Both the position numbers and the translations under genes were made by a program. Source: Candidatus Cloacimonadales bacterium (lineage in GTDB: Bacteria > Cloacimonadota > Cloacimonadia > Cloacimonadales > JAIOQZ01). From it: a DNA stretch of 64,000 nt. Of the stretch, positions 3,257 to 64,000 are shown in pieces; the stretch's first letter is position 1; every line of letters starts with the position of its first letter. The notes beneath the pieces were generated by a model, which worked only from the letters and a program-made list of their open reading frames with translations, made no database searches and was not told the origin of the DNA. Location: positions 3,614,423-3,678,422 of the forward strand of contig CAXXTU010000002.1 in assembly GCA_963662655.2 (NCBI GenBank), given 5' to 3'.

Positions 3257-3323
3257 AAAAGGGGATTTTGTGCGCGAAGCGCACGCGCCGCCCCGCCGGG
3301 CTGGATTGGCGAGCAATCTCGGG
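3257..3323 (+). repeat. Partial relative of the structured element at 49523-49707
   Basis: AAAAGGGG..GTGCGC-GAA-GCGCAC-GCGCCGCC..GCTGGATTGGCG aligns with AAAGGGGG..GTGTGC-GATA-GCACAC-ACGCCGCC..GCTGGACTGGCG at about 49669-49717. Confidence 0.55.
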
Positions 3324-3441
3324 TCGTGCAGGAGTTTACAACAGGGGAAGTAGAGCATTCTATTAGCATCTGCGAAAAAAAGATTTACAGGATTATCGAG
3401 AATCGGTTAGCTAGCCATAGTAATAAACAACGGAGGTAAAC

Positions 3442-8171: not shown

Positions 8172-8248
8172 GCGCCTGTAGCTCAATTGGATAGAGCATC
8201 TGACTACGGATCAGAAGGTTTGGGATTCGAATTCCTACAGGCGCGCCA
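8172..8248 (+). tRNA. tRNA-Arg(ACG)
   Basis: GCGCCTG acceptor stem paired with CAGGCGC, followed by GCCA; D-arm GCTC-AATTGGATA-GAGC; anticodon arm TCTGA-CTACGGA-TCAGA; T-arm TGGGA-TTCGAAT-TCCTA; 77 nt. Confidence 0.98.
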
Positions 8249-8393: not shown

Positions 8394-9554
8394 CTATTCC
8401 GCGTTCCGGACGATGCGGAAGCCGGTGCTGTTCCCACTGCTTGCTGGTGTGGTTCCGGCGCGAAAGGCAATCTGGCAGTAGAACGAGCTAAAACTGAAGT
8501 AGCCGCCACGGATTTCTCTGCGTGTACCCGTATCCGGTCCATGAGGATTGTCGGGCTCGGTGAGATTATCGAAGCTCGTTGACCAGTCCCAGCACCATTC
8601 AAGCACATTTCCGCTCTGGTCATACGTTCCAATACCGTTCGCCTGTTTCTCACCCACGGGATGCGCATGCCCACTGGAGTTCGAGCTATACCATGCGACA
8701 TCATCACAATCGTTGCTGCCTGCATACGTGTAGTCCGGTGTGTTGGTCGCACCGCGTGCGGAGTATTCCCACTCCGCTTCAGTGGGAAGGCGATAGCCGT
8801 CAGCGCTCCAGTTGCAGGTTACAGTGGCTCCGCTGATAGTGTAGCATGGCGTGTAGCCGTCTATCTGGCTAAGCCAGTTGCAGTACTCCACCGCGCCGAA
8901 CCAGGATACGTAGATCATTGGGCAGTTCGGAGACGTATTGTAGCTTCCACCCTGGAACACGTACTCGCCATTGATCCGATAGATTCCGCTATCGCCGTTG
9001 ATCTGGGTAACGCACTGATTGCCGTTGTATGCACCGGAGATATCCATGCTCACTTCGTTCATAAAAAGAAGGTATTCAGCGATTGTGAGCTCGAATGTGC
9101 CAATGTAGAACGCGTCCAGATTCACCGTGTGAATCGGAGTAGCCACGCCAGTACGCCCCATCTCAAAGCTACCGGCGGGGACATACACGAAGCCATCCGG
9201 TACCGGCGTTTGCCCGTCGTCGGCGGTGATCTTGAAGCGGAAGTCGTCGCCGCTCATATTGGGATGTTCCGCGAGAACGTCCCACACGATGTGCTTGCCG
9301 TTTCCGGAGTAGATTCCCGGACCAATATCACCGGTCACGAGATTACAGCTTAGATTCCAAGTCGCGCCGTTGTCGTCGGAAACGTTCATCACGATCGTCA
9401 TCTCGTCACCGTCGGCGTCGTAGAGGTTATAGTAGATATCCATCTTGCGGGAGCCGTCGTCACGTTGGGAAGCAGTTGTGTTCGACACCACCGGCGCTTC
9501 CGCGCTGAGCGCGATGCCGGTGAGTAAGGCGAGTATGAAGATAATCTTTCGCAT
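8394..9554 (-). CDS. Secreted FGE-sulfatase (SUMF1)/CLec-fold protein, paralogue 1
   Basis: Signal peptide; Ig-like N-terminal domain; motifs GSFEMG, YRLPTEAEWEYSARG, DQSGNVLEWCWDW, RGG...GFRIVR. Confidence 0.9.
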   Translation of the reverse strand: MRKIIFILALLTGIALSAEAPVVSNTTASQRDDGSRKMDIYYNLYDADGDEMTIVMNVSDDNGATWNLSCNLVTGDIGPGIYSGNGKHIVWDVLAEHPNMSGDDFRFKITADDGQTPVPDGFVYVPAGSFEMGRTGVATPIHTVNLDAFYIGTFELTIAEYLLFMNEVSMDISGAYNGNQCVTQINGDSGIYRINGEYVFQGGSYNTSPNCPMIYVSWFGAVEYCNWLSQIDGYTPCYTISGATVTCNWSADGYRLPTEAEWEYSARGATNTPDYTYAGSNDCDDVAWYSSNSSGHAHPVGEKQANGIGTYDQSGNVLEWCWDWSTSFDNLTEPDNPHGPDTGTRREIRGGYFSFSSFYCQIAFRAGTTPASSGNSTGFRIVRNAE

Positions 9555-9563
9555 GTTCTCCTC

Positions 9564-10664
9564 CTATTCCGCGGTCCTGCAAAGGCGGAAGCCGATGAAG
9601 TAGTAGCCATTGGACGGCGTGTAGAGGTGGCGAATGGCAACCTCGCAGCCCCACGCGTAGTCGTACCAGCAGCCGCCACGCATCCTACGGTACGAGCCGG
9701 TAGCAGGGCCATGAGGGTTGGTCTGTGTACCCGATGTATATGAACCATACCAGTCCCAGCACCATTCCCATACATTGCCGCTCTGGTCATACGTCCCAAT
9801 ACCATTCGCCTGCTTCTGCCCCACGGGATGGGGCTGTCTACCAGAGCCAGTATCAGAATTGTCGTAATACCACGCTACATCGTCAATTGTATCGCTCCCT
9901 GAATACAAATAGTCCGGGGTGTTGGTCGCACCACGAGCGCTGTACTCCCATTCCGCCTCCGTGGGAAGGCGGTAGCCGTTGGCGGACCAGTTCACATCGG
10001 GTGTGAAGCTGCCGCCCCAGTTGTCCGGATTCGTGTCACCGGATACGGAGTACACTGGCGTCAACCCTTCTTGAATGCTGCTATAGTTGCAGTATTTCAC
10101 AACCGAATACCAAGAGACACGCTCCACAGGTCGTTGCATGTCGCCGGTGAAGTATGATGGATTGCTCCCCATCACATCCACCCATTCCTGTTGAGTTACC
10201 TCATACGTACCAATGTAAAACGCGTCCAAATTCACCGTGTGAATCGGAGTAGCTACGTCTGTCCGCCCCATCTGGAAGCTGCCGGAGGGGACGTATACAA
10301 AGCCATCCGGTACCGGCGTTTGTCCGTCGTCGGCTACGATCTTGAAGCGGAAGTCGTCGCCGCTCATATTGGGATGCTCCGCAAGAACATCCCACACAAT
10401 GTGCTTGCCATTGCCAGAGTAGATCCCCGGACCAATATCGCCGGTCACGAGATTACAGCTTAGATTCCAAGTCGCGCCATCGTCATCGGATACGTTCATC
10501 ACGATTGTCATCGCGTCGCCGTCGGCGTCGTACACGTTGTAATTGATATCCACTTTGCGGGAACCGTCGTCGCGCTGGGTGGCGGTTACGTTCGTTATTT
10601 CGGGGGCCGTGCACCACAGGGCAATCGGCAGAAGTACAGCAAGGAGCATAAGTATTTTATTCAT
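9564..10664 (-). CDS. Secreted FGE-sulfatase (SUMF1)/CLec-fold protein, paralogue 2
   Basis: Same architecture as 8394-9554 with a near-identical N-terminal domain; YEVTQQEW, PVERVSW, RLPTEAEWEY, GNVWEWCWDW, RGGCW...IGFRLCR. Confidence 0.92.
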   Translation of the reverse strand: MNKILMLLAVLLPIALWCTAPEITNVTATQRDDGSRKVDINYNVYDADGDAMTIVMNVSDDDGATWNLSCNLVTGDIGPGIYSGNGKHIVWDVLAEHPNMSGDDFRFKIVADDGQTPVPDGFVYVPSGSFQMGRTDVATPIHTVNLDAFYIGTYEVTQQEWVDVMGSNPSYFTGDMQRPVERVSWYSVVKYCNYSSIQEGLTPVYSVSGDTNPDNWGGSFTPDVNWSANGYRLPTEAEWEYSARGATNTPDYLYSGSDTIDDVAWYYDNSDTGSGRQPHPVGQKQANGIGTYDQSGNVWEWCWDWYGSYTSGTQTNPHGPATGSYRRMRGGCWYDYAWGCEVAIRHLYTPSNGYYFIGFRLCRTAE

Positions 10665-43501: not shown

Positions 43502-43519
43502 ACGATATACGACATAAAG

Positions 43520-43549
43520 AAAACCGCCTGAGATTCCTCGGGCGGTTTT
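43520..43549. terminator. Bidirectional intrinsic terminator (copy 1)
   Basis: AAAACCGCCTGAG-ATTC-CTCGGGCGGTTTT between convergent genes. Confidence 0.8.
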
Positions 43550-43606
43550 GCTTTCAGATTCAAATTCCTTTCGATAACTTTCCGTTGAAGCTGAAGCGGT
43601 AAGCTA

Positions 43607-44950: not shown

Positions 44951-45071
44951 GAATCCTCCTCATTTAATGAATAGGTTATCACATACAAGTATAGCATGTC
45001 AAGTATTTTAATAAAAGTATGTAAAGCATTGGGTGTCCACAGACAAGTTGGTGGTCATTCGTAATATAAAG

Positions 45072-45101
45072 AAAACCGCCCGAGATTTCCCGGGCGGTTT
45101 T
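45072..45101. terminator. Intrinsic terminator (copy 2, near-identical to copy 1)
   Basis: AAAACCGCCCGAGATTTCCCGGGCGGTTTT. Confidence 0.8.
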
Positions 45102-45118
45102 GCGTATGCACAAACGGA

Positions 45119-49017: not shown

Positions 49018-49368
49018 TTACTTCGCTTCGGAGGGTTTGTCGCTCGGTTTGTTAACAACGCCTGCGATTGCGTGGCGCTGGAACTCGATTTTGGTGTTGG
49101 TGGCTTCATCTACGCGGAGGACGACGCTGTCCTTGTCTTTCTTGATTGTCACGATCTTGCCGATGATACCGGAGGAGGTCGCGACGATGTCGTTTTCCTT
49201 GAGGGAATCGAGCATCTTCTGGTGATCTTTCTGCTTCTTCTGCTGTGGACGGATCAAAAGAAAATAGAAGATCGCGAACATGAGCGCGAAGGGGAGAAGC
49301 ATTCCGAGAATTCCGCCGCCTGCTGCCTGCGCGGGAGCCGCCGTTTCCTGAAGTAATAGCTGATACAT
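49018..49368 (-). CDS. yajC: Preprotein translocase subunit YajC
   Basis: IFYFLLIRPQQKKQKDHQKMLDSL...TSSGIIG; SD AAGGAG before the ATG at 49368. Confidence 0.95.
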   Translation of the reverse strand: MYQLLLQETAAPAQAAGGGILGMLLPFALMFAIFYFLLIRPQQKKQKDHQKMLDSLKENDIVATSSGIIGKIVTIKKDKDSVVLRVDEATNTKIEFQRHAIAGVVNKPSDKPSEAK

Positions 49369-49522
49369 ATTTATCTCCTTATTCGTCGTTTCAGAACCTG
49401 AAAACTTGCCTGAGGAATCCACGTAGGATTCCACATTCCATATTTTGTTAACGCGTTATGCTGTCAATGTTTCTCCCTAGAAGCGTTGTGTGTTCTGTAT
49501 TCTTCAGGTACGTTCACCGACC

Positions 49523-49707
49523 GCGGCGGCGGCGTGGGAAGCCCAATCACCCGCTCACAAAAAGCAAGCGTTCGAACGGATTACGCTCGACCGAATGCTC
49601 CTTGAGCGCGGGTTTCATTTGGGCTTCCCGGCCCCCTTTCCGATTGCTTTGAGCAACAAAACAATCGGAAAGGGGGCTGTGTGCGATAGCACACACGCCG
49701 CCGCCGC
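49523..49707 (+). ncRNA. Candidate structured ncRNA or non-autonomous element (perfect four-way junction)
   Basis: Four contiguous helices read directly from the sequence (see findings); G-T wobbles favour the + strand; no family recognised. Confidence 0.55.
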
Positions 49708-49822
49708 TGGACTGGCGCGAGACCCGAGGCGGAAGAATCTTTGCGGAAGACTCGAATTACATTGACGCCATTATGCCGGGGATTAAATTGTTAATTGAAC
49801 ACGACAAACGAAAGGAGTACCT

Positions 49823-50194
49823 ATGAAATCGACCAGCACACACAGAGCCCCCGCAGCGTTAGGACCGTATTCTCAAGCAGTGAGTAAGAATGGATTGGTT
49901 TTCGTATCCGGCCAGATTGGCATCGAGCCGACCTCCGGCAAGCTTCTGGATTCCTTTGACGAGCAGGTTGCGCAAGCCATGCGCAACGTGAAGAACATCC
50001 TGGAAGAAAACAATCTGGGTTTTGGAAACGTGCTCAAAGCGACCATTTACCTGGTCGATCTGGAGAACTACTCCCAGTTCAACGATATCTATGCGACCTT
50101 CTTCGAATCACCGTATCCGGCCCGTGAAGTTGTGGAAGTCGGAGCCCTGCCGAAAGATGCCCAGATAGAAATCTCAATGATTGCCATGGCGTGA
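49823..50194 (+). CDS. ridA: RidA/YjgF-family enamine deaminase
   Basis: APAALGPYSQAV, FVSGQIG, YPARE..EV..LPK...IEI. Confidence 0.93.
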   Translation: MKSTSTHRAPAALGPYSQAVSKNGLVFVSGQIGIEPTSGKLLDSFDEQVAQAMRNVKNILEENNLGFGNVLKATIYLVDLENYSQFNDIYATFFESPYPAREVVEVGALPKDAQIEISMIAMA

Positions 50195-61358: not shown

Positions 61359-64000
61359 AGCAGATCGGAGTGACCTCACTGCAACCTTTCTTGCAGAAGT
61401 CCGGTAAGGGAATCAAGACCCTAGCTTCCGGAAAAAACTCCCTTTTCTTCAAGATCATCAGCTCGATCACGAACCTCGCCTCGAGTCAGCAGGCAAAGGG
61501 TACCGTTTCGAAGCACACTTCTTCGTCGAATCAAAGTCGTTTACGCATGCAGACAGCAAGGCTGAGCCATCTATATCGTCCGGTCCTCGATCAGACCAAG
61601 CGAATACAGGTATTGTGGAAGTCGATGCGAAGACGTTTTCGCTTGTGCTTGGGAAGGGCGAGCAGACGGTTGCGGAAAAGAAGACGCTACTGCATAGCGC
61701 TGCGAATCAAACCAAGCTCAAGAATCCTGAGGTGAAACGAAGCGCAGGGAAGCCTCAGGATGTAATTATTGCACAGGAAGTGACAGCTCAGCCCACAATA
61801 ACGGAAATACCTGTCAAAGAAGTTATCTCTGATGTGCATGTGGCCACGGATCAGAAGGTAAAAAGTCCGAGAATCAGGATACTGCTACGAAAAACACTTT
61901 CTTCCAATAACTCGATCTCAGTGAGAGGCACTGTGGCAGATAGCAAAACCAAGCCGGTTGTCGCTGAGAAAACCGTGCTACATATCGATCGATCCTGGAT
62001 CGGGAAATCACAGATTGCGGAAGCGGCAGTTAAAAATAAGATGGCGGAGAACAAGCAGACAGCCGCTGCAACGCCGGATGTTCATGAAAAGAAAGGTTCT
62101 TCGAAAGCTGCTGTTACCGACGTAAAGATGGCTGCACCGAAAACGCACGCGCATAAGACCGCTCCTGAAGCGAATGTGCCGAATGTGAAGGGTGAATCGG
62201 TTAATACGGAAAAAGCAAGTTTCAAAGAATCGAAGTCTGCGACCAGTCAACCTCAGACGAGCGTGTCGGATAAGCCTGTTGCGGATGAAAAGCCCGAACA
62301 GGCACAATCCAGCGCACGTAAAGTGGCCACTTCCGAAGTGAAGCCCGAACCGGCCCCGAAGAGTGAGATCATTCGGGATCGCTCATCAAACAATGTTGCA
62401 TCACAGCCAGCGCGCTCTGATTTTATCGCTTCGTCCCGTAAGGATAACGTGAAGCAGTCCCCGGCCAGCGCGCAAGATGCGGTTCAGGGAAAGCCCGGCG
62501 AAGAGCTGAATATTCCCTTGAAGCAAAATGCGAACATTCGCCCCGCGCCCGGATCGTCGATTCCTGTATCCAACCGGGTCGTTGATCACGATGCGGTCAA
62601 GCATGCCGCGCAGAAGGCCCCGTCACTTCACCGGAAGAAATTTCCACGAAAATGTGAAGCACACGACAAGCAAGCAGCAGATCGCAGATTTCGCCGGGAA
62701 GTTGCACGCGAACGTGAGGAGCGCGACTCCCGTTCCAGCGGATATGGGCTTCAGGAATGGAGAAGTCGAGATGAACGCTCGACAGTGGAACTCCATCCAG
62801 GCGGAAGTCAGGGCCGCGACTCCTGAGACGCCGCGTGTTGCGACTCCAAAGCAAGCTCCGTCGAAGATGGCGGAAGCACCGAAGGAAGCGACCATCCCGG
62901 TGGGCAAAGCGCCGCAATCCGAGACGGTTGTTACCAAAGAAGAATTTTCTACCGCCGCAAAGCCTGAGCAGACGGTTAATCCGGATGCGAAGGTTGCTTC
63001 AACCACACAGCACGCTGAAATAAAGCAAGGTGCAATGCCGAACCATGCTCCGACGAAGATGTCGGAAGCTCCGAAGAAAGCGACCATCCCGGTAGGCAAA
63101 GCGCCGCAGTCTGAGACGGTTGTTGCCAAAGAAGAATTTTCTACCGCCGCGAAGCCTGAGCAGACGATAAATTCGGATGCGAAGGTTGCTTCAACCACGC
63201 AGCACGCTGAAATAAAGCAAGGTGCAATGCCGAACCATGCTCCGACGAAGATGGCGGAAGCACCGAAGGAAGCGACCATCCAGGTGGGCAAAGCGCCGCA
63301 ATCCGAGACGGTTGTTGCCAAAGAAGAATTTTCTACCGCCGCGAAGCCTGAGCAGACGATGAATTCGGATGCGAAGGTTGCTTCAACCACGCAGCACGCT
63401 GAAATAAAGCAAGGTGCAATGCCGAACCATGCTCCGACGAAGATGTCGGAAGCTCCGAAGGAAGCGACCATCCCGGTAGGCAAAGCGCCGCAGTCTGAGA
63501 CGGTTGTTGCCAAAGAAGAATTTTCTACCGCCGCGAAGCCTGAGCAGACGATGAATTCGGATGCGAAGGTTGCTTCAACCACGCAGCACGCTGAAATAAA
63601 GCAAGGTGCAATGCCGAACCATGCTCCGACGAAGATGGCGGAAGCACCGAAGGAAGCGACCATCCAGGTGGGCAAAGCGCCGCAGTCTGAGACGGTTGTT
63701 ACCAAAGAAGAATTTTCTACCGCCCCGAAGCCTGAGCAGACGATGAATTCGGATGCGAAGGTTGCTTCAACCACGCAGCACGCTGAAATAAAGCAAGGTG
63801 CAATACCGAACCATGCTCCGACGAAGATGTCGGAAGCTCCGAAGGAAGCGACCATCCCGGTAGGCAAAGCGCCGCAATCCGAGACGGTTGTTACCAAAGA
63901 AGAATTTTCTACCGCCGCAAAGCCTGAGCAGACGATGAATTCGGATGCGAAGGTTGCTTCAACCACGCAGCACGCTGAAATAAAGCAAGGTGCAATGCCG
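61355..64000 (+). CDS. fliK: Probable flagellar hook-length control protein, very long, broken by frameshifts near 61524 and 62620-62645, runs off the window
   Basis: Position fliJ-ylxF-fliK; ATGA overlap; disordered A/S/T/K/P-rich sequence. The diagnostic C-terminal domain lies outside the window, so the call is positional. Confidence 0.6.
62855..64000 (+). repeat. Coding tandem repeat, 192-bp (64-aa) unit, at least 6 copies
   Basis: Units start at 62855, 63047, 63239, 63431, 63623 and 63815; consensus APTKM(A/S)EAPKEATI(P/Q)VGKAPQSETVV(T/A)KEEFSTAAKPEQTMNSDAKVASTTQHAEIKQGAMPNH. Confidence 0.97.

Follow-up and report, generated by a model that had tools for sequence, protein, structure and literature searches.

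The stretch of DNA analysed in this study (the window, 64,000 nt) belongs to a Candidatus Cloacimonadales bacterium (GenBank assembly GCA_963662655.2, contig CAXXTU010000002.1, positions 3,614,423 to 3,678,422 of the forward strand), whose genome (G000; 3.81 Mb, 51% G+C, 98.95% complete) is assembled in two contigs, C1 and C2. Between the divergent genes yajC and ridA of the window lies a 185-nt element that folds into a four-way junction, outside both a conserved block upstream of yajC and a promoter-like site of ridA (Table 1). The block, which we infer to be the promoter region of yajC, was 92-94% identical in the sister species G001 and G002, both of which are element-free at this place and have a short spacer to a next gene that is not ridA. 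As the element is located between two outward-facing promoter regions, the transcript of neither neighbour would cover it. Contigs from three read runs, probably of the source sample, were identical to the window, without joints or variants. The collection of homologues, which an earlier note on this DNA had proposed, revealed that the element is one member of a dispersed family with at least 74 complete copies and strong covariation. On balance, we consider it probable that the junction is one of about 75 genus-restricted, intergenic, palindromic DNA repeats which spread and act as folded single-stranded or extruded DNA and are not RNA genes.

Table 1. Parts of the four-way-junction element and features around it (positions in the window).
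Feature	Position	Strand	Description	Basis
5' outer flank (P0)	49512..49522	+	GTTCACCGACC; semi-conserved family type '..CACCGACC(GCGC)'	flank table, alignments of related copies
P1 5' arm	49523..49535	+	GCGGCGGCGGCGT, 13 nt; (GCG)4 minority variant of the family consensus GGCGGGGCGGCGY	
P2, long form	49536..49629	+	94 nt; base GGGAAGCCCAA/TTGGGCTTCCC; inside, a T-rich 3' internal loop and a stem specific to the copy	
P3	49630..49678	+	49 nt; hypervariable, perfectly paired; closed by a G-T pair	
P4	49679..49694	+	GTGTGC-GATA-GCACAC; core GCGATAGC (49683-49690) matches the mini-hairpin DNA motif GCGNNAGC	
P1 3' arm	49695..49707	+	ACGCCGCCGCCGC	
3' outer flank (P0)	49708..49729	+	TGGACTGGCGCGAGACCCGAGG; family type 'GC(GC)TGGACTG..GAGCAA..CGAG'	
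Partial copy	3270..3324	+	P4 GTGCGCGAAGCGCAC, P1 3' arm GCGCCGCCCCGCC and 3' outer flank; P1 5' arm, P2 and P3 absent	
yajC	49018..49434	-	longest open reading frame (ORF); true start perhaps further in	Pfam YajC, E 1.7e-30
Block upstream of yajC	49439..49474	.	36 nt; with TTGACA on the strand of yajC; separates yajC from the element	
ridA promoter-like site	49762..49789	+	TTGACG, 16 nt, TAAATT; between the element and ridA	consensus match only
ridA-type gene	49823..50194	+		Pfam Ribonuc_L-PSP, E 2.7e-37

The structure of the window copy was determined by computational folding. The positions of the four helices, the G-T pair closing P3 and the absence of unpaired bases at the junction, as described in the earlier note, were all reproduced: P1 closes three arms that abut without a gap. 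When the 246-nt stretch was folded as RNA, the minimum free energy of the + strand was -140 kcal/mol compared to -86 +/- 4.7 kcal/mol for 200 shuffles (z -11.5), and that of the - strand was -155.4 kcal/mol compared to -91 kcal/mol (z -11.9), and no shuffle was as good on either strand. With DNA parameters the 185-nt core formed the same four-way junction, at -77.2 kcal/mol for the + strand and -82.3 kcal/mol for the - strand. The described GC-richness was also evident, as the G+C content was 0.59-0.60 across positions 49500-49724 and 0.39 and 0.48-0.53 in the adjoining DNA on the left and right, respectively. In agreement with the earlier note, in which no tRNA, tmRNA, RNase P, SRP or riboswitch motif was recognised in the element, the Rfam scan of the whole window at gathering scores gave a sole match, the tRNA at 8172-8245, and a permissive scan at the element gave sub-threshold miRNA-type noise only, the best local score being 31 bits against a gathering score of 64.

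BLAST of the 246-nt stretch against its own genome gave paired partial matches to both P1 arms at many places, and a pattern for P4 and the P1 3' arm was found at 51 places in G000. The nhmmer profiles of two end modules yielded 86 and 89 matches, resulting in 69 complete units of 102-197 nt. Among them, 62 folded unaided into P1 plus exactly three branches, and the other seven failed this branch test solely because a P1 mismatch broke the parser. A covariance model (R1) was built on a MAFFT alignment of 31 short copies, for which the structure was written by hand. At E <= 1e-6 it recovered all 69 copies, five more complete copies and three copies in sister species, which brought the complete copies in G000 to 74; each copy also matched the model on the opposite strand with about half of the bits, since the unit is nearly palindromic. 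Four truncated copies were found (C2:675137, 1165277, 1370246 and 3617692). One of these, the covarying partial copy at 3.3 kb of the window that was noticed earlier, was present with its P4 and P1 3' arm at 3270-3297 and without the 5' arm, and it carried a compensated change in P4 (GTGCGC/GCGCAC vs GTGTGC/GCACAC in the window copy). Most copy statistics below are based on the 69 nhmmer copies, the counts of the P4 motif on the 74 copies and the counts of pair changes on the 31 aligned copies; the alignment from the R1 search (431 columns, with both strands of each copy mixed) was excluded from counts.

The members of the family share a common plan with constant and variable parts. P1, a 13-bp GC closing helix, mostly reads GGCGGGGCGGCGY / RCGCCGCCCCGCC, and its inner 7-8 bp (GGCGGCG) were without variation in 31/31 aligned copies. 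Every P2 begins with GGAAGCC or a close variant of it and is either a short hairpin of 16-32 nt (31 of the 69 copies) or a long form of 74-95 nt (38 copies), which contains a copy-specific stem, a T-rich 3' internal loop and, in some copies, a loosely conserved apical motif CCGAATTTCATCCG. P3 (17-60 nt, 7-24 bp) differs in almost every copy yet is paired, and its base is more alike than its tip. The inserts of P3 and P2 were also searched for in the genome as possible 'spacers' from other genomic DNA, and matches were found in related copies only. P4 consists of 6 bp around a 3-nt loop, which was GAA in 24 copies, GGA in 18, GCA in 5, GTA in 3 and others in 19, including reverse-complement loops (TTC 2, TCC 2, TAC 1). 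Outside P1 the copies are semi-conserved over about 6 nt when aligned without gaps and about 25 nt when gaps are allowed, where the imperfect outer stem P0 is formed with an asymmetric TGAG(T)C bulge on its 3' side. The outer pairing common to the family spans about 6 to 25 nt immediately beside P1. The ATTCTTC/GAAGAAT pairing that had been suggested as an extension lies beyond this outer stem, and such pairing was at chance level (exact inverted matches of at least 7 nt in 15/69 copies vs 56/342 mismatched-flank controls).

Pairing was then compared between copies and between strands. Across the 69 copies, 3802 pairs (96-97%) were Watson-Crick, while the two strands had 116 and 131 G-T pairs. 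The claimed preference of G-T pairs for the + strand thus failed at the level of the family, and also in the window copy, in which the - strand folded better with RNA as well as DNA parameters. In a structure-blind MAFFT alignment of the 31 copies, P1, P2 and P4 were 95.8% paired, and this proportion fell to 36-55% when the partners were slid. Changes on both sides were detected in 16 of the 27 pairs, amounting to 88 double-change cells compared to 24.7 in shuffles (0/500 shuffles reached 88), and one-sided changes of wobble type were found in 7 of 829 cells. Because the copies are paralogues, the shuffle figure is not a probability, and the weight lies on the near absence of wobble intermediates.

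The motif GCGNAGC/GCGNNAGC, written together as GCGN(N)AGC, was found in P4 on the forward strand of 56/74 copies and on the reverse strand of 5/74. In the whole genome there are 240 GNA mini-hairpins with a 4-bp stem, of which 59 are inside four-way-junction copies and 181 elsewhere. According to a 2026 review, mini-hairpin DNA of the type GCGNAGC/GCGNNAGC remains folded in 7 M urea, is nuclease-resistant and exceeds its RNA counterpart in stability; it is found at single-strand initiation sites and is bound poorly by the single-stranded DNA-binding protein (SSB) (PMC13037366).

A very stable fold as RNA together with strong covariation would also be expected of a multi-copy structured RNA, whose constant scaffold presents the variable perfect duplex P3, for example to a double-strand-specific RNase; P3 stems of 16-24 bp within an unchanging frame are reminiscent of hairpin precursors. 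However, the family has no Rfam match, its G-T pairs are equal on both strands, and one-sided wobble-type changes are rare compared to double changes. No conserved promoter was found in or beside the unit, where conservation stops about 20 nt outside P1, and 17/69 copies lie between divergent genes, where read-through from a neighbour is unexpected. About 75 copies in G000 vs one in each sister also speak against an RNA gene, and the special stability of the P4 loop motif has been described for DNA (PMC13037366). The strands are symmetric, wobble intermediates are scarce, copies have no preferred direction relative to genes, and the window copy is positioned outside both flanking promoters; on these grounds the structured RNA is disfavoured, and we regard it as very unlikely. 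A role as terminator was rejected as well, for the unit has no T-run after P1, and at 26 of the 73 gene 3' ends facing a copy a terminator-like hairpin of the gene itself comes first. Judged from these sequence features, folded DNA, and not an RNA gene, is likely the form in which the family acts. Of the two natures offered in the earlier note, an element that is non-autonomous and folds as single-stranded DNA agrees in kind with the dispersed family and its DNA-type features, and the structured RNA is the less favoured of the two.

The perfect pairing of arms which differ from copy to copy may reflect a process at the level of DNA. Related copies differ in P3 by multi-base changes that are mirrored on both arms. 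Template switching in replication creates perfect stems and restores existing ones in one event (PMC8794818). The stems of our family resemble those described in that work for RNA genes in being perfect, in their multi-base compensated changes without intermediates and in their inverted loops. It is likely that replication template switching has kept the arms perfect, as deduced here from the pattern of changes. Template switching between arms would also account for the flipped loops and for the flipped cores reported below. Taken as a mechanism, a trans-acting protein would recognise the conserved P1, P2 base and P4; folding on one strand would start from the P4 mini-hairpin, which has exceptional stability as DNA; for the variable arms, pairing would be enough, and their complementarity would be maintained as one arm is copied from the other by template switching.

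The placement of the copies was evaluated with a crude purpose-made ORF caller. Fifty-eight of the 69 copies were wholly between ORF calls. In the other 11, the overlap was confined to a longest-ORF call's 5' end or to an ORF of at most 63 aa, which is the kind of overlap that over-long start calls would yield. The gene context was convergent for 21 copies, divergent for 17 and tandem for 31, without a preferred direction; gene 3' ends faced a copy 73 times and 5' ends 65 times. The copies were distributed along the whole chromosome, about 50 kb apart on average and without arrays. A common C-terminal domain, which we take to resemble the T9SS sorting domain, was carried by 21 of the 138 neighbouring genes and by 196 of the 2820 predicted genes genome-wide. 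In addition, seven neighbours were judged by eye to be TPR and sigma-54-activator-like proteins.

Outside G000, the family was found within the genus only. Three same-genus genomes (G001, G002 and G003), whose conserved genes are 68-81% identical to those of G000, contained one copy each (at most 150 candidates scored per genome). No copy was found in 37 other genomes of the order, nor, beyond the genus, among 150 genomes representing 53 genera of the phylum; 22 candidates per genome were scored in this set, so that weak copies may have escaped detection. Collections of plasmids and phages were without a match. Among the 80 loci listed by a pattern scan of a genome collection, one was a true copy, in a 'Candidatus Cloacimonadales' metagenome-assembled genome (MAG; locus L136) and with the same sequence as the G003 copy, and most of the others were chance matches in high-GC genomes. 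In JGI metagenome contigs, the pattern of P4 and the P1 arm hit seven loci, all of them weak GC-rich chance matches (<=27 bits), and a 26-mer from upstream of yajC had 0 matches.

G001 and G003 have their single copies at a common locus, flanked by a PTPS-type gene and a zinc-ribbon gene, and the neighbours of the single copies include a PTPS-type enzyme, a GTPase, FadL and a metallo-beta-lactamase-fold protein. At this locus G000 lacks a copy, and its spacer there is too diverged to place the element boundaries. Both copies keep P1, the P2 base and P4, and they differ in the length of P3 (25 vs 61 nt) and P2 (44 vs about 96 nt). Such conservation amid diverged intergenic DNA is consistent with a structural DNA site under host selection, in which the junction-shaped fold is the binding target of a host protein (with a role in, for example, chromosome architecture, supercoil buffering, priming or SSB exclusion) and spread is secondary. 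The same explanation agrees with the pattern in the 74 copies, whose P1, P2 base and P4 hardly vary and whose P3 and inner P2 are free, with the occurrence of copies along the entire chromosome, and with the resistance to SSB binding reported for mini-hairpins at single-strand initiation sites (PMC13037366). However, one copy suffices in the sister species compared to about 75 in G000, so that no general housekeeping role is needed. The lack of a copy in G000 at the G001/G003 locus, the existence of truncated copies and the absence of a rule of position or direction relative to genes or replication also weaken it, and we consider a host-selected site unlikely.

Comparison of the copies with one another revealed that their parts are combined in different ways. 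Among the 49 copies with an assignable orientation, the core was inverted relative to the outer flanks in 6. Reassortment was seen for the types of P2 and P3; copy 22648, for instance, shares its P2 with copies 2629194 and 2981029 and its P3 with copy 2402098. The flank type was associated with the P2 length, with exceptions in 13/50 copies. The copies 126267/1122908 and 1808070/3139661 have common cores and no likeness past about 15-25 nt outside P1, and over 120 nt the G002 copy and the one of G000 at C1:115437 are 91% identical, with unrelated flanks and different outer halves of P1. At 3/3 loci of G000 tested (C2:3663945, which is window position 49523, C2:2588478 and C2:2942972), the flanks of the copy were 0.5-0.75 Mb apart or on different contigs in the sister genomes. 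Copies may thus be rearrangement breakpoints, a suggestion based on three loci and no control regions for the overall rearrangement rate.

Inverted cores, shared cores with different P1 outer halves and flanks, reassorted P2 and P3 types and separated flanks are all products that a recombination cassette would generate. A site-specific recombinase would then cross over at the invariant inner half of P1, which forms the inverted pair GGCGGCGY ... RCGCCGCC, leading to core inversion, core swaps and chromosome rearrangement. However, no recombinase gene was found beside the copies examined, the separation of flanks has to be read without a control for rearrangement in general, and homologous recombination or template switching between 13-bp inverted repeats gives the same products. 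A cassette of this kind is therefore quite unlikely in our estimation.

Several results weigh against the preferred reading of the family as repeats that spread and act as folded DNA. The first concerns the enzyme. The earlier note had proposed a mover of HUH/RAYT type, which was not supported: the Y1 transposase family of IS200/RAYT (Pfam Y1_Tnp, PF01797) had 0 matches at E <= 0.01 in the 98.95%-complete G000, and it was present in 6 of 14 control genomes. IS110 (PF01548) had no match in G000, and TnpB (PF07282) had two sub-threshold matches of 20.6 and 19 bits compared to a cut-off of 26.3. For Y2/IS91 (PF04986) there were 0 matches in G000 but likewise 0 in the controls, hence the search was uninformative. 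The second concerns insertion. No target-site duplication was visible where related copies cease to match, and no clean empty site was obtained, as the intergenic DNA of the sisters is too diverged and the flanks are apart at all three loci tested. The comparison of the yajC-ridA interval with relatives, suggested earlier, did locate the element-free block upstream of yajC in G001 and G002, but the flanks are non-adjacent there and no empty site could be aligned.

The third concerns replication. Elements inserting at forks as single strands usually show a replication-strand bias. The cumulative GC skew of the genome was clean, with a minimum at 2.77 Mb and a maximum at 0.81 Mb, and no such bias was detected, either for the cores (35 leading vs 31 lagging, p 0.71) or for the outer flanks (24:23). 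A second repeat family of G000, used as positive control with the same origin and terminus, was distributed 81:27 (p 2e-7). The last concerns the pattern of conservation. P1 and P4 are almost invariant and P3 is saturated, which is not predicted by plain decay of selfish copies, and the retention of P1, the P2 base and P4 by the G001/G003 copies amid diverged DNA hints at selection on each copy. There was also no sign of ongoing hypermutation, because in a 557-bp segment duplicated with one copy at C2:2159053 and C2:2239183 (97.8% identity) the element is about 2% diverged, like its flank. Since no mover and no target duplication were found, and given the invariant P1 and P4 beside the saturated P3, the G001/G003 locus and the lack of hypermutation, the host-selected site and the recombination cassette remain rivals of the folded mobile DNA that we prefer.

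The resident multi-copy insertion sequences (IS) were also considered as the parent of the family and rejected, as the ends of ISL3 (9 copies, GGCACTGTTGCAAAC...) and IS3 (8 copies, TGTCCCGTCCTGAAA...) are unrelated to the element ends. Two ISL3 copies had landed near members of the family, in A/T runs whose distances from the 5' edge of the four-way junction are 26 and 17 nt (C2:2159227-2159352 and C2:2629372-2629400).

Based on these features, the family was compared with known systems. Like the REP (repetitive extragenic palindromic) sequences and their BIME and REPIN composites, it consists of GC-rich extragenic palindromes in tens to hundreds of copies, with modular composites and a copy number that is sharply unequal among close relatives. 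A REP is a single hairpin of about 20-40 nt after a GT(A/G)G head, the RAYT gene is flanked by two inverted REPs, and several REPs carry a GCG-N-AGC loop, e.g. GTAGGGcGGGTAAGCGgAGCGCACCCgCC (Table 1 of PMC2817692). In contrast, our repeats are four-helix junctions of 102-197 nt with one near copy-unique arm and with no GT(A/G)G head beside P1 in the 69 copies, and no Y1 transposase was detectable in G000. MITEs, the miniature inverted-repeat transposable elements, and other small mobile intergenic repeats of bacteria are likewise described as non-coding, 100-250 bp long, intergenic, strongly folding and expanded in single species (PMC3184786, PMC2229807, PMC10969869). Unlike these, the family does not match the inverted repeats of IS3 or ISL3, and its conserved sequence is in the inner helices and not at the termini. 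In sequence terms, the family is most like REP/BIME/REPIN and MITEs, yet it has no GT(A/G)G head, no RAYT and no IS-like ends, which are the defining features of those groups.

The likeness to mini-hairpin DNA is exact at the level of the motif, which P4 carries on one strand of most copies and which is GCGATAGC in the window copy. The natural cases described in the review cited are single sites in phage or plasmid origins (PMC13037366), whereas here the motif is a dispersed chromosomal arm without a link to replication direction. 

The flip/flop termini of parvoviruses are T-shaped three-way ends of linear viral genomes, copied by hairpin transfer. They share with our family a closing stem with small internal palindromes whose order occurs in both orientations, but the repeats studied here are internal to the chromosome and just 6/49 are flipped. 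The attC sites of integrons have R''/R' core boxes (RYYYAAC / GTTRRRY) and occur in cassette arrays beside intI. They were rejected as a model, since no such boxes were seen at the ends by inspection and the copies are not in arrays; intI was not searched for. In a limited search of the literature on junction-shaped or cloverleaf-like bacterial repeats and on Cloacimonadota repeats, no description of the family was found.

Two loci in Polyangiales MAGs (L124, JBILLI010000835.1, and L160, JBILLI010000490.1) looked similar but hold another repeat, whose ends are GGTGTCTGG...CCAGACACC and whose middle does not pair. Its stem (GGCGGCG), hairpin (GGGATGC) and mini-hairpin (GTGCGCG(T/C)AGCGCAC) follow one another in the order of P1, P2 and P4. 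These loci were rejected as members of the family on account of their own GGTGTCTGG ends and the unpaired middle.

Other repeats were observed in the genome and in the window. The second intergenic family of G000, which served as the control above, is unrelated (GGCATCTTCGCCCGATC ... AACGTGGATATA ... AACACCACGT ... GATCGAACGAATC) and has copy-specific stems that still pair; examples on C2 are at 234904-235117, 277322-277482, 985121-985264 and 1816745-1816881. Its 17-mer, with at most 2 mismatches, had 108 matches on C2, and the 81:27 distribution was with the leading strand. In the window, a tandem array of at least five units with a period of 192 nt (91-95% alike) occupies 62839-63906, and two adjoining segments of about 1.1 kb (77-88% alike) at 8582-10494 resemble a tandem gene duplication beside the tRNA. 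A pair of GC-stem hairpins (43513-43551 and 45066-45108; 92% alike, 1.55 kb apart) with A-run and T-run flanks (AAAACCGCC...GGCGGTTTT) look like bidirectional terminators.

The family provides a clean natural case of strong covariation, with 88 double changes vs 7 one-sided ones and equal G-T pairs, in which there is no evidence for RNA. Covariation tests alone would call it a structured RNA, which is a useful warning. It also constitutes a data set on how DNA-level copying keeps palindromes perfect, and it presents a testable tension between near-invariant P1 and P4 and a saturated P3, also present at the single-copy locus of G001 and G003. An elaborate, modular repeat of four helices exists in a poorly studied and mostly uncultured phylum, and its expansion of about 75-fold in one species without the known transposases of hairpin repeats points to undescribed machinery or a host process. 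It is possible, though doubtful, that these repeats represent a new type of mobile DNA which is defined by its structure. Such an element would have the shape of a Holliday junction, and its fold would start from a GNA mini-hairpin; an enzyme other than a Y1/HUH transposase would move it, or would exchange and flip its three-arm core at the invariant GGCGGCG/CGCCGCC, and its arms would diversify but stay perfect through template switching. If this were true, the chromosome would be reshaped at the sites of insertion.

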